From NCBI GenBank assembly GCA_019056785.1, contig DXJV01000005.1, positions 20,716-84,715 on the forward strand: a stretch of 64,000 nucleotides of DNA, in the 5' to 3' direction. The translations under genes were made by a program, and so were the position numbers. Each line of letters opens with the position of its first letter. The first letter of the stretch is position 1. Below, one piece after another: positions 17,607-19,760 of the stretch. Source of the stretch: Candidatus Heimdallarchaeota archaeon. GTDB lineage: Archaea; Asgardarchaeota; Heimdallarchaeia; JABLTI01. A model generated the notes under the pieces. The model did no database searches. It was not told the DNA's origin and saw only the letters and a list, made by a program, of their open reading frames with translations.

Positions 17607-19760
17607 TTGCAGCAGATTCTTGAAGAAGAGACTCGAGAGTTCCATTCACTCTTCGTACATGACTTTAATGTGGATGGTATTTCCGAAATAATTGCTTCAC
17701 GCTTACAAAAAAGTAGCACAGAGATTAGTGTTCTTCATCCCAAACATCTTGCTAATTCTTCTGTGAAAATTAATGAACGCATTAACGTTCTCTGTGTGGC
17801 ACAGACAAGTTTGGATAAAGGCTTTGAATTAATAACTGGCGATATCAAAGGAGTCCTTCGGATCAATGCTAGAAATGGCCGTCCCTTTTATAGTAAAGAT
17901 ATTAAAGATGGCATTCGCTTGCCTTCCAGTATTTTGGCAGCCGCGCCAGGTGATTTGAATGGGAATAAGCTTTCTGAAATAGTCGTTGGTTGTGCAAATG
18001 GCGAAGTAGTAATGATTGAACGCATTCCTGGCAGAAAACACCGGTGGGATAAGATTCGCGGTTTCTCCTTGGGAAAAGTCTTCCAAAAACCAGTGACAAC
18101 CATTCTTACAGGTGATTTCAATGGTAACGGTTATACTGGTTTCATTGCAGGCTCTGAAGATGGTTTTTTCAAGGAGATCGAATTTCGACCGCAATTACAA
18201 AAATTTGACCTTATTGGAGAGTTTAAAGTTGAAAGCCCTCCATCATTTTGTTTCTGTGGTGACTTTGACCGGGATGGTATCTCTGAAGTGATGGTAGGAG
18301 AGCAGTCAGGAAAACTCAATATCTTTAAACGAAATTATTTAATGTCGAGTCACACCTTAGATGGCGCTATAACTTGTGGTGTGGTTGGTGATGTAGATAA
18401 TGACCACCAACTTGAGGTTGTGGTTGGAACTTCTCGGGGCTCTTTTCATATTCTTCGTTCGAATACAATTGAAACACATGAGGGCTACAGCAATATCGCA
18501 GACTTGAAAATCGGCGATTTATACGGAAATAGACAAAATGAATTGATTTTTTCTATAAATAAAAGACGAATTCTTGCTTTTACAATCACACGTGATAAAG
18601 CCTCGGAAAAATCAAATGTTGAGTTGATCCCATTCAAGGACCCGCAACAATTACAAGCACGCACACCACAGCCATCGGTGGCACAAAATGCTTTCTGCCC
18701 GAATTGTAGCTCACAAGTGCGTTTTATTGAGCAATATCGACGATGGTATTGTTATACTTGCCGGCAATATGTCGCACCTGTAAGTAAGAAAGAAGAAGTA
18801 AAACGAAAGGTGCCAACGATCGAGGCGAAAAAGTATGGAACACCCTACAGTGTCGGCTCTCACTATGACCCTTATCGCCCCTATGAACCAACAAGGGAAA
18901 CAGCTGCCGGTGGAGCATCGAAACTTGAGAAAGTAAAAGATAGAGTTGAGAGTAAATTAGCAGATCTTCAGCCTGGGCAAAACCTCGAGTGGCAAGAAGA
19001 AATTGATGAGAATGGTATTGTAGATGCTCAAGAAGATGTGAATTATTTTCTCCCCCTCGATTTAGAAGCTGACTTGGATGTTGGAGTGTCCATTTTTAAT
19101 GACATCCTAAAAATAAAGCACGTAATTCTAATCCATTCCCAATCAGGCGTTCCTCTATTTAGTCAAGGCTTCGGAAAGGATATCGATGTGTCTTTGACTA
19201 GCGGCTTTTTAAGTGCTGTTGGAACTTTTACTGAAGAAATGGCCGGCGAGTCAGAAAAGCGAATTGGAGTCTTTAGTGAAATTGGCCGTGAAGGATTCTG
19301 GATAATAATTTATGAAGGCGAAATGTCAAAAACCGCCCTCCTTGTTAGCGAAAAGATCGGTGAACACTTGAAAAAACGCATACAGATTTTCATGAAAGAG
19401 TTTGAACAAACATTTAAAACAGAACTTGAGAATTTCAATGGCTTTATCTCCGCTTTTAAGGGAGCAACCGACCTTTTGGAAAAACACCTGCGCTTAGAAT
19501 ACCTTTATCCACTCAAGATGGATGCTAAAAGAATGCGGCTAACAGCTATCAACCAAAATGAAAAAACCTTGGCAAAAGCATTCACAGATTTTCTCAGCCA
19601 AACAGACGAAGAGGTTTTCTATGTGACAGAATTAATTGATGTTATTATGCAAGATCCAAAGAATAACCTCCTAAAGGAAGATGTTCTTAAAATTCTTATT
19701 AAATACCTCGAAAATGGCATGTTAATCCCTCTCCCTCCCCCACCAACAGAACATGTTTGA
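17607..19760 (+). CDS. FG-GAP beta-propeller + Zn ribbon + longin + winged-helix multidomain protein
   Basis: Seven DxNxDG/E-hhhG blades (about aa 1-330); CPNC...WYCYTC; HVILIHSQSGVPLF...LTSGFLSAVGTFTEEM longin signature; C-terminal wHTH-like helices; no signal peptide. Confidence 0.8.
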   Translation: MQQILEEETREFHSLFVHDFNVDGISEIIASRLQKSSTEISVLHPKHLANSSVKINERINVLCVAQTSLDKGFELITGDIKGVLRINARNGRPFYSKDIKDGIRLPSSILAAAPGDLNGNKLSEIVVGCANGEVVMIERIPGRKHRWDKIRGFSLGKVFQKPVTTILTGDFNGNGYTGFIAGSEDGFFKEIEFRPQLQKFDLIGEFKVESPPSFCFCGDFDRDGISEVMVGEQSGKLNIFKRNYLMSSHTLDGAITCGVVGDVDNDHQLEVVVGTSRGSFHILRSNTIETHEGYSNIADLKIGDLYGNRQNELIFSINKRRILAFTITRDKASEKSNVELIPFKDPQQLQARTPQPSVAQNAFCPNCSSQVRFIEQYRRWYCYTCRQYVAPVSKKEEVKRKVPTIEAKKYGTPYSVGSHYDPYRPYEPTRETAAGGASKLEKVKDRVESKLADLQPGQNLEWQEEIDENGIVDAQEDVNYFLPLDLEADLDVGVSIFNDILKIKHVILIHSQSGVPLFSQGFGKDIDVSLTSGFLSAVGTFTEEMAGESEKRIGVFSEIGREGFWIIIYEGEMSKTALLVSEKIGEHLKKRIQIFMKEFEQTFKTELENFNGFISAFKGATDLLEKHLRLEYLYPLKMDAKRMRLTAINQNEKTLAKAFTDFLSQTDEEVFYVTELIDVIMQDPKNNLLKEDVLKILIKYLENGMLIPLPPPPTEHV

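Follow-up and report, generated by a model that had tools for sequence, protein, structure and literature searches.

Asgard archaea encode many eukaryote-like parts, and how these are wired together is mostly unknown. The locus described here raises the question of what a soluble archaeal protein may do when a single chain carries a beta-propeller resembling those of the KICSTOR and BBSome complexes, a zinc ribbon, and a longin domain followed by a winged-helix-like end (the longin+wH module). The gene lies on the plus strand at 17607..19760 of the 64,000-nucleotide stretch of DNA that we analysed (the window) and encodes a soluble, cytoplasmic multidomain protein of 717 amino acids from a TTG start. 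The start codon is the first to follow a stop in this reading frame, so that the gene cannot reach further upstream, and this start is supported by the orthologues, which also begin there, with MQQTLE. We found 28 orthologues, full-length or partial, sharing 55-86% identity and coming, where the organism is named, from Heimdallarchaeota or Asgard archaea. Among the 201 Asgard genomes searched they are confined to genus g1, where they occur in three of three genomes in addition to the source genome. A hydropathy scan revealed neither a signal peptide nor a transmembrane segment in the protein or its orthologues, in line with the cytoplasmic location claimed by a first-pass annotation made from the sequence. 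The order of domains read at that stage (propeller, cysteine ribbon, longin, wHTH-like end) proved right as well.

In that alignment, column identity reaches 75-82% in the propeller, ribbon and longin and falls to 32-36% in the linkers. The linker at residues 393-478 (18783..19040, plus strand), rich in proline, tyrosine and acidic residues and with no hydrophobic segment, has a column identity of 0.36 against 0.75-0.82 in the flanking domains and carries many indels. Near the C-terminus, a P-L-P-P-P-P motif (residues 708-713; 19728..19745, plus strand) keeps P708 and P710-P713 invariant across 24 orthologues, only its first proline being conserved in the wider longin+wH family. The protein is real, strongly conserved and cytoplasmic in one small Heimdall-type Asgard group, and it joins known eukaryote-like parts (propeller, zinc ribbon and longin+wH module) in a combination that is new.

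Residues 1-340 (17607..18626, plus strand) form a seven-bladed FG-GAP beta-propeller according to Pfam, the AlphaFold2 model and structural matches. The seven blade strings quoted in the first-pass annotation were all found, at residues 18-29, 65-78, 115-128, 169-185, 218-231, 261-274 and 303-315, and an N-terminal strand (residues 2-8) also belongs to the propeller. Pfam FG-GAP (PF01839) matches at E 3.4e-11 (43.2 bits, above the cut-off of 22.1) and FG-GAP_3 (PF13517) at E 2.3e-9 (38.1 bits, above the cut-off of 26.9). The model, built with 24 orthologues, has 28 strands making up seven four-stranded blades (pLDDT 81.6, pTM 0.77) and superposes on known seven-bladed propellers with Z scores of 25-31, integrin alpha4 giving 25.3; mean column identity of the propeller among orthologues is 0.75. 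A derivation of this propeller from the ectodomain of P0034, an FG-GAP-TSP3-TM-module receptor, is conceivable; the BLAST similarity is repeat-level only (E 7e-8, 25%), and the soluble FG-GAP propeller P0284 is closer (E 7e-15).

The propeller is followed by a four-cysteine zinc ribbon at residues 361-392 (CPNC...CYTC, then QYV; 18687..18782, plus strand). Its cysteines C364, C367, C382 and C385, at nucleotides 18696-18761, are invariant in 24 orthologues and lie where the cysteine motif had been placed (about 18696-18770). Column identity is 0.82, and Pfam zinc-ribbon matches are weak only. A matching ribbon (52% identity, E 1e-7) forms the C-terminal end of a Rab-like/Ras-family GTPase encoded on contig C14 of the same genome, and the same ribbon also ends two of the genome's polytopic membrane proteins.

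The longin+wH module begins with an N-terminal helix and the longin at residues 490-634 (19074..19508, plus strand), the longin itself covering residues 502-634 at nucleotides 19110-19508, close to the earlier estimate of about 19117-19495. Its AlphaFold2 model (pLDDT 87.3) has the topology alpha-beta-beta-alpha-beta-beta-beta-alpha-alpha, and VIA-align superposes it on Sec22b with Z 13.4 and an rmsd of 2.6 over 127 of 128 residues, which bears out on the model that the C-terminal region is a longin fold. Synbindin (TRAPPC4) follows with Z 11.4 and the Lokiarchaeal longin 8yqg with Z 11.2; at least 40 longin chains reach Z 9 or more, and roadblock domains give Z 7-9. Compared with known longins (Sec22b, Ykt6, VAMP7, synbindin/TRAPPC4, sedlin, AP sigma, Fuzzy and the Loki Roadblock-Longin 8yqg), the domain has the same fold and topology (Z 10-13.4 over 120-130 residues). 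It differs in sequence, with 7-17% identity, and in its surroundings, since here there is an extra N-terminal helix, and a helical connector and winged helix always follow. Sequence models recognise none of this: for residues 470-717 we found no curated longin model and no Pfam family at E 0.1 or below, Pfam and NCBIfam gave nothing for the tail, and the tail family profile had chance matches only among PDB sequences, none better than E 0.9. The end of the tail, residues 647-709 (19545..19733, plus strand), is predicted as helix, bridge, helix, helix and strand. This predicted secondary structure fits a winged helix, and this is the least-tested part of the assignment; the only structural match to cover it was 6ec8_A, with Z 7.4 over model residues 153-235.

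Searched with phmmer, residues 470-717 matched 729 representative clusters at E 1e-3 or below, 212 of them at 1e-10 or below, over query positions 26-240. The homology spans the whole of the approximately 215-residue module (E 1e-33 to 1e-12, 23-34% identity). Where the source is named, nearly all members come from Loki/Promethearchaeota, Thor, Odin, Hod, Hermod or Heimdall archaea, and the module family is large, uncurated and apparently restricted to Asgard archaea. In 210 of 252 members (about 83%) a hydrophobic helix precedes the module, ending at a median distance of 15 residues from it. Most members are surface proteins that cross the membrane once and carry the module directly beneath it on the inner side; their ectodomains include LVIVD, FG-GAP/VCBS, SBP_bac_5, TSP3 and MG2 domains. 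The tail of the 717-aa protein is homologous to that of these surface proteins; where they have an ectodomain, a signal peptide and a membrane helix, this protein has a cytosolic propeller and a zinc ribbon. The soluble minority of the family includes fusions to GTPases and to HerA-like ATPases. P0035 and P0043 are two such proteins, each a Ras-family GTPase (E 1e-49 and 1e-53) fused to the module. A tree of the module places both of them, with three TSP3 receptors, in one clade (97*), and the propeller family is the sister group of this clade (SH-aLRT 90). The enclosing clade of 15 rows (100*) contains most of the soluble architectures. With P0035 as query, a search of 61 genomes from the same class gave GTPases and module proteins only as separate proteins and no fusion of the two. 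A Rab-like GTPase of the source genome (contig C98, 17331-17885) is 44% identical to the G domain of the natural fusions.

Two copies of the module are predicted to pair. The complex prediction reached an ipSAE of 0.46 (0.46-0.48 in three runs) against 0.00 for the best of three controls, with 100% contact agreement between runs, a partner pLDDT of 87 and symmetric contacts at model residues 80:80 and 59:59. Of solved structures, 20 of 30 homodimers and one of 23 monomers attain the mark used; roadblock and longin dimers are numerous among known structures, so the result may stem from resemblance to them. The predicted interface, residues 524-566 (19176..19304, plus strand), consists of the central helix alpha1 and the edge strand beta3 (residues 556-561) and includes the stretch VFSEIGREGFW, invariant in the orthologues. 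The predicted mode of homodimerisation is the classical one, in which helix and edge strand form the interface typical of longin and roadblock pairs.

We consider that the protein may be a lineage-specific, soluble and dimeric scaffold or adaptor that docks small GTPases in one Heimdallarchaeial genus-level clade, and assign this reading a probability of about one half. The module would pair with a second copy through its central helix and edge strand to give a particle with two propellers, and the longin dimer would offer a docking or regulatory platform for a Ras- or Rab-like small GTPase. Such a platform is suggested by the natural GTPase-module fusions of the sister clade and, by analogy, by the roles of longin/roadblock dimers in TRAPP, Mon1-Ccz1, Ragulator and MglB. 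The fusions, together with the zinc ribbon shared with a GTPase, give indirect support to a relation between the tail and small GTPases. The propeller and zinc ribbon may recruit further partners. In five orthologous loci the propeller gene has no conserved small-GTPase gene beside it. Furthermore, with the GAP-longin motif described in PMC12290439 as the comparison, we found no conserved arginine across the module family, and only a sub-clade has the G-x-P turn in its beta1-beta2 hairpin; there is therefore no indication of a GAP mechanism by arginine finger as in FLCN/NPRL2.

Some longins, among them those of SNAREs and of the sigma and mu subunits of adaptors, work without a GTPase, and this counts against a GTPase platform. 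As an alternative or in addition, a partner for the longin might be the tail of a paralogue anchored in the membrane. A possible explanation, to which we give clearly less weight, is then an adaptor without a GTPase, in which the tail would bind peptides, or the tails of such anchored paralogues, much as sigma/mu adaptins and SNARE longins hold their ligands, and would bring the propeller to surface receptors. The best structural matches of the longin, namely Sec22b, Ykt6, VAMP7 and the adaptor sigma subunits, would suit this role, as would the predominance of receptor tails in the module family and the presence in the same genome of a membrane paralogue with the architecture LVIVD-TSP3-TM-module (contig C5; 31% identity, E 1e-28). 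The GTPase-module fusions of the sister clade and the ribbon shared with a Rab-like GTPase speak against it, although neither is decisive.

The gene next to the propeller gene suggests another partner. A 2,309-aa helical-repeat protein with a weak MIT match and SNAP-like TPRs in Pfam is encoded at 19879..26808 on the same strand, 118 nt downstream, and its gene adjoins the propeller gene in all orthologous loci. Among the 201 genomes this solenoid is, like the propeller protein, restricted to genus g1. The two could therefore make up, in trans, one complex that shapes or tethers membranes, a proto-coat of propeller-longin and alpha-solenoid that would be compatible with a GTPase platform. We regard such a pair as doubtful. 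Synteny extends just as well over the entire surroundings, unrelated redox and transporter genes among them, and adjacency is therefore of little weight; the locus that diverges most has a glyoxalase gene inserted between the two, the T-rich intergenic region may terminate transcription, and a solenoid paralogue on contig C18 has neither a propeller nor a longin neighbour. Gene order was for these reasons dropped as evidence of a propeller-solenoid complex. An extended version would make the 717-aa protein the soluble subunit of a lineage-specific membrane machine, in which the longin pairs with receptor tails and docks a Rab-like GTPase, ribbon-bearing GTPases and membrane proteins join, and the neighbouring solenoid contributes the alpha-solenoid half of a particle resembling a coat or tether. 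This combination is unlikely; if true, propeller, solenoid, longin and small GTPase would come together in a prokaryote as one assembly tied to surface receptors.

The first-pass annotation had read the fusion as a possible Rosetta stone, a record of an ancient link between a KICSTOR/BBSome-type propeller and a longin GTPase regulator of the GATOR1 type (NPRL2/3-like), which would make the protein a relative of the ancestor of those complexes. The propeller does have affinities of this kind. The family profile, searched against PDB sequences, finds ITFG2 as by far the best match (E 1.3e-9, 34 bits), the next FG-GAP-type matches being far weaker (CRTAC1 E 0.098, BBS2 E 0.2). The stretch concerned is blades 5-6, residues 212-283 (18240..18455, plus strand), against ITFG2 20-93, and the likeness of these blades to the ITFG2 N-terminus, proposed in the annotation, is in this way confirmed. 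ITFG2, BBS2, BBS1 and BBS7 also stand at the top of a Foldseek search (ITFG2 E 3.9e-13, TM 0.60-0.65), and a second aligner, independent of Foldseek, places BBS2 first with Z 30.7 and an rmsd of 2.7 over 295 aligned residues, followed by BBS1 (Z 27.6) and ITFG2 (Z 27.2, 317 residues). BBS2, BBS7, ITFG2 and Asgard clusters are, in addition, the language-model neighbours of the propeller.

However, the ITFG2 match covers 72 residues, that is two blades, and in a rotated register, blades 5-6 here pairing with ITFG2 blades 1-2; in the profile search no stretch beyond these residues is significant, and collinear similarity along the whole propeller is absent. Pfam Itfg2 (PF15907) reaches 18.1 bits, or 16 on the genome, against a cut-off of 27, and BBS2_Mid (PF14783, 25.6 bits) and Beta-prop_BBS7 (PF23743, 23.2 bits) also remain below their 27-bit cut-offs. 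P0284 passes the Itfg2 cut-off, and other FG-GAP proteins of the same genome are nearer to P0284 than the 717-aa protein is. Bacterial VCBS propellers superpose about as well (TM 0.69-0.71, against 0.73 for BBS2), while a word-indexed search with the propeller profile, which returned only orthologue fragments and the two distant propellers P0284 and P0285, could not rank eukaryotic against bacterial relatives. ITFG2 (PDB 9v6e, 9o5a) shares with our protein a cytosolic seven-bladed FG-GAP propeller without signal peptide; it differs in having neither a zinc ribbon nor a longin tail, and its Z score is tied with those of generic WD40 propellers, also about 27. The BBS propellers (BBS2, BBS7, BBS1; PDB 6vbu, 6voa, 4v0m), among which BBS2 stands about 3 Z units above the rest, share 13-15% identity with our protein; in 4v0m the BBS1 propeller is bound to the GTPase ARL6. 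No BBS2/7 coiled-coil, GAE or platform domains were detected here, and Pfam BBS2_GAE and BBS2_C have no match in the 717 residues. The propeller is of the cytosolic BBS2/ITFG2-like kind, and the likeness is real but limited.

The GATOR1 side of the proposed link fares similarly. NPRL2-like longin families and fusions are reported in Asgard archaea (Liu et al., 10.1101/2020.10.19.343400), and GATOR1 chains appear among the Foldseek matches of the tail at E about 1e-3 with long alignments of 275-293 columns (9o5a_C: 285 columns, E 8e-4), at an rmsd of about 14 Å. NPRL2 and NPRL3 also have a similar order of longin and C-terminal domain. Yet the module family lacks across its breadth a conserved arginine finger or GP motif, and the longin is nearer to Sec22, synbindin (TRAPPC4) and sigma-adaptin than to NPRL2/3, which are absent from the 50 best longin matches by Z in both VIA searches and were consequently dropped as closest relatives of the tail. 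The tail is, moreover, a mobile Asgard module found mainly on surface proteins, and the fusion occurs in one genus-level clade among 201 Asgard genomes, a present distribution which suggests a recent, lineage-specific event. An ancient link of the kind proposed is, on these grounds, very unlikely, and that claim of the annotation is not supported as it stands; a good ITFG2 sequence match alone does not indicate KICSTOR ancestry. The protein is probably neither an orthologue nor a direct ancestor of ITFG2, BBS2 or NPRL2/3 and represents a lineage-specific shuffle.

A transcription regulator whose winged helix binds DNA, with longin and propeller as sensor domains, was set aside as very improbable: the winged-helix-like end, a paralogue with a weak HTH_45 match and weak language-model neighbours with TrmB or HTH_47 (scores of 0.80, leads only) would favour it, but the winged helix is acidic (net charge -5), the family is not consistently basic (median 0, range -9 to +7) and about 83% of its members are membrane-tethered.

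In the literature searched, we found neither the propeller-longin fusion nor the longin+wH tail family described. One preprint catalogues a "BBS7/ITFG2" Asgard-eukaryote cluster without detail, longin fusions are treated in general only (Liu et al. 2021; Tran et al. 2024), and the main text of the Asgard structural ESP paper (PMC12962969) mentions no BBS, ITFG2, longin or propeller. The scaffold proposed here, a candidate GTPase-docking dimer, may be compared with eukaryotic assemblies that contain propeller subunits, namely C9orf72-SMCR8-WDR41, Mon1-Ccz1-RMC1 and Fuzzy-Inturned-WDPCP (CPLANE). The likeness is an analogy of design only: they are built of the same parts, a longin dimer and a beta-propeller, which here are on a single chain, and their longins are among our structural matches (7q3d, 9rs9, 6lt0, 8jbe). 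They differ in that their propellers are separate WD40-type subunits and not fused FG-GAP domains, and no DENN or tri-longin arrangement is present here.

One chain here joins a BBS2/ITFG2-like propeller, a ribbon common to a Rab-like GTPase and the longin module of receptor tails and Ras-like fusions. In eukaryotes, such parts are known to meet only within multi-subunit GTPase regulators. The protein is a compact and expressible handle on what Asgard longin modules bind.

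We found that the propeller-longin gene (window positions 17607-19760, + strand) is an ORF of 717 residues with a TTG start, from which no upstream extension is possible and which is the same in 24 aligned orthologues (55-86% identity), the orthologues being labelled Heimdallarchaeota or Asgard group. The first-pass annotation had described here a propeller, a CPNC...CYTC ribbon and a longin tail. This architecture is present in the ORF: the seven blade strings cited are all found in the translation, and the cysteines lie at nt 18696-18761. It had also placed the protein in the cytoplasm, which fits a hydropathy scan that detected no N-terminal signal sequence and no membrane helix in the protein or its orthologues. 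Conservation tracks the domains, with values of 0.82 in the zinc ribbon, 0.79 in the longin and 0.75 in the propeller but 0.32-0.36 in the two linkers. The window's own genome, G000, is an Asgard genome of 2.87 Mb, 82.5% complete, the window lying on contig C44. When 201 Asgard genomes were searched with the propeller, high-scoring orthologues turned up solely in genus g1, in 3 of its 3 genomes and in the window's genome as well, all remaining hits being generic FG-GAP similarity (E at least 1e-11). Genomes of family f10 encode proteins of ~2,240-2,300 aa that include an FG-GAP-like propeller segment matching the present propeller at E 1e-8 to 1e-10; examples of this type from other Asgard genomes are L024 (G116:C1:90523-94137), G134:C15 and G170:C54.

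In Pfam, the propeller scores above the cut-offs of FG-GAP (E 3.4e-11) and FG-GAP_3, and narrowly misses the 27-bit cut-offs of BBS2_Mid (25.6 bits), Beta-prop_BBS7 (23.2 bits) and Itfg2 (18.1 bits); genome-wide checks likewise left these models under their cut-offs. Its AlphaFold2 model, from the orthologue alignment, has seven blades (pLDDT 81.6, pTM 0.77). Foldseek ranks ITFG2, BBS2, BBS1 and BBS7 at the top (E 4e-13 to 1e-9) and WD40 proteins lower. A Foldseek-independent aligner places BBS2 best (Z 30.7) and BBS1 (27.6) and ITFG2 (27.2) level with generic WD40 propellers. By language model, the neighbouring clusters are those of BBS2, BBS7 and ITFG2, along with Asgard ones. The likeness to ITFG2, already pointed out in the first-pass annotation, is sustained by the Foldseek rank and by the propeller family profile, which matches ITFG2 at E 1.3e-9 against all PDB sequences, with the next FG-GAP-type proteins many orders weaker and an alignment that is persuasive outside the Asp-rich loop too. 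However, this match spans only 72 residues and sets blades 5-6 of the propeller against the first two blades of ITFG2. Furthermore, predicted bacterial VCBS propellers fit the propeller as closely (TM 0.69-0.71) as eukaryotic BBS2 does (0.73), and P0284, a soluble FG-GAP propeller, passes the Itfg2 cut-off, other FG-GAP proteins of G000 being closer to P0284 than the propeller-longin protein is. The propeller is therefore of the cytosolic BBS2/ITFG2-like kind, a likeness that does not establish orthology with either.

The four cysteines of the zinc ribbon and the subsequent W-Y-C...Y-V are invariant among the aligned orthologues. Ribbons of ~50% identity form the extreme C-terminus of three other G000 proteins, a Rab-like GTPase of the Ras family (Ras E 1e-42) and two polytopic membrane proteins, in each case after a long low-complexity linker (carriers at L005:280-1590 on contig C14, L004:301-1617 on C85 and L006 frame 0 on C4). 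The C-terminal pattern is CPxCG...FIxQYxRWYCxxCxxYV-stop; in the propeller-longin protein the ribbon is internal. It looks like a putative portable tag or interaction module.

For the tail (residues 470-717), Pfam and NCBIfam returned no family. Its model (56-sequence alignment, pLDDT 87.3, pTM 0.84) starts with an N-terminal helix, continues into a beta-beta-alpha-beta-beta-beta-alpha-alpha core and, through a helical connector, reaches a helix-helix-helix-strand end. The core is a longin, as had been claimed, matching Sec22b with Z 13.4 (rmsd 2.6, 127 aligned) and synbindin (TRAPPC4), Ykt6, VAMP7, sedlin, AP sigma, Fuzzy and the Lokiarchaeal longin 8yqg with Z 10-11.4; roadblock domains give Z 7-9. 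As for the suggested tie to NPRL2/3, GATOR1 chains gave long, loose Foldseek alignments to the tail (E about 1e-3) and were not in the best 50 by Z, therefore a specific relationship is unsupported. We also found an invariant C-terminal P-L-P-P-P-P motif (19728-19745, +) specific to the propeller-longin family, which, speculatively, could be a short polyproline ligand, e.g. for profilin.

Complex prediction pairs two copies of the tail at ipSAE 0.46 (0.46-0.48 in three runs; best of three controls 0.00), with 100% contact agreement across runs and a partner pLDDT of 87; 20 of 30 solved homodimers reached the mark, as did 1 of 23 solved monomers. The predicted interface is symmetric, involves the central helix and the next edge strand (residues 524-566) and corresponds to the classical longin/roadblock dimer; likeness to solved dimers may thus account for the pass. 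The prediction shows that the tail keeps this surface; binding itself is not implied. We consider it most likely, with a probability of about 0.5, that the protein acts as a dimeric longin platform for a Ras/Rab-like GTPase.

An exhaustive phmmer search found tail homologues in 729 representative clusters (E<=1e-3). The matches cover about 215 residues, located towards the C-terminus of proteins 200-2,050 residues long, whose named sources are nearly all Loki/Promethearchaeota, Thor, Odin, Hod, Hermod or Heimdall archaea. A hydrophobic helix ends a median of 15 residues ahead of the module in 210 of 252 members, many of which carry an N-terminal signal-like segment as well. Among the domains on their N-terminal side are propellers of the LVIVD and FG-GAP/VCBS types, TSP3 repeats, macroglobulin-like domains and a solute-binding protein domain. 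Thus, the longin+wH module is chiefly a juxtamembrane cytoplasmic tail of single-pass surface proteins. In this sense, the tail may instead be an adaptor for receptor tails, independent of any GTPase. Soluble exceptions are two representative proteins from outside the window, P0035 and P0043, which join a Ras/Rab-family GTPase to the module (Pfam Ras E 1e-49 and 1e-53) without a membrane helix, and one HerA-like ATPase with the module. In a maximum-likelihood module tree the propeller family is a single clade (100*), and its sister group (SH-aLRT 90) is a clade (97*) that unites both GTPase fusions with three TSP3 receptors; most soluble architectures fall in the enclosing 15-row clade (100*), the other 41 rows being nearly all membrane-anchored. 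No GTPase-module fusion was found in 61 same-class genomes with P0035 as query, the closest G domains there (44-46% identity) being stand-alone Rab-like GTPases, one of them in G000. This genome holds four additional longin(+wH) copies. One, on contig C5 (L002:1-2220; 31% identity, E 1e-28), belongs to an LVIVD-TSP3 protein in which Pfam gives weak hydrophobic-region (TM-like) hits; it is a candidate heterodimer partner. The others lie on C72 (L003:598-1872, minus), C43 (L007:1435-3324, minus) and C98 (92005-92277); a TPR protein carries one of them, and another is part of a 424-aa protein that has a weak HTH_45 hit.

Another possibility is a complex with the downstream solenoid (19879-26808, +; start probably ATG at 19897), a 2,309-aa helical-repeat protein with a weak MIT hit, TPR and SNAP-like similarity. 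The solenoid and its paralogue in G000 (C18, L026:8089-15015; 2,308 aa, 18% identity) were found in genus g1 only, among 201 Asgard genomes, and the solenoid adjoins the propeller-longin gene at every orthologous locus. This shared distribution and adjacency are weak evidence of a link, because the entire neighbourhood is syntenic, an inserted gene splits the pair at one locus, a T-rich intergenic region separates them and the paralogue has no comparable neighbour. Divergently upstream (14181-17302, minus), an oxidative-stress cluster of rubrerythrin, desulfoferrodoxin, an ODP-type metallo-beta-lactamase-fold protein and a double thioredoxin is kept in all orthologous loci. Elsewhere in the window, a 348-aa ORF (36915-37961, minus) has no Pfam family at E<=0.01. 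A role as DNA-binding regulator seems the least likely: the winged-helix-like end, recognized by its secondary-structure prediction and a single structural match (Z 7.4), is acidic in this protein (net -5) and, across the family, shows no consistent basic character.

Regarding the dimeric platform, the longin tails would pair, the platform so formed would serve a Ras/Rab-like GTPase, and the two propellers carried by the dimer may be interaction surfaces. The fusion had been proposed as a Rosetta stone for KICSTOR-GATOR1; the best reading is that it is no such record but a shuffle of Asgard parts specific to this lineage.
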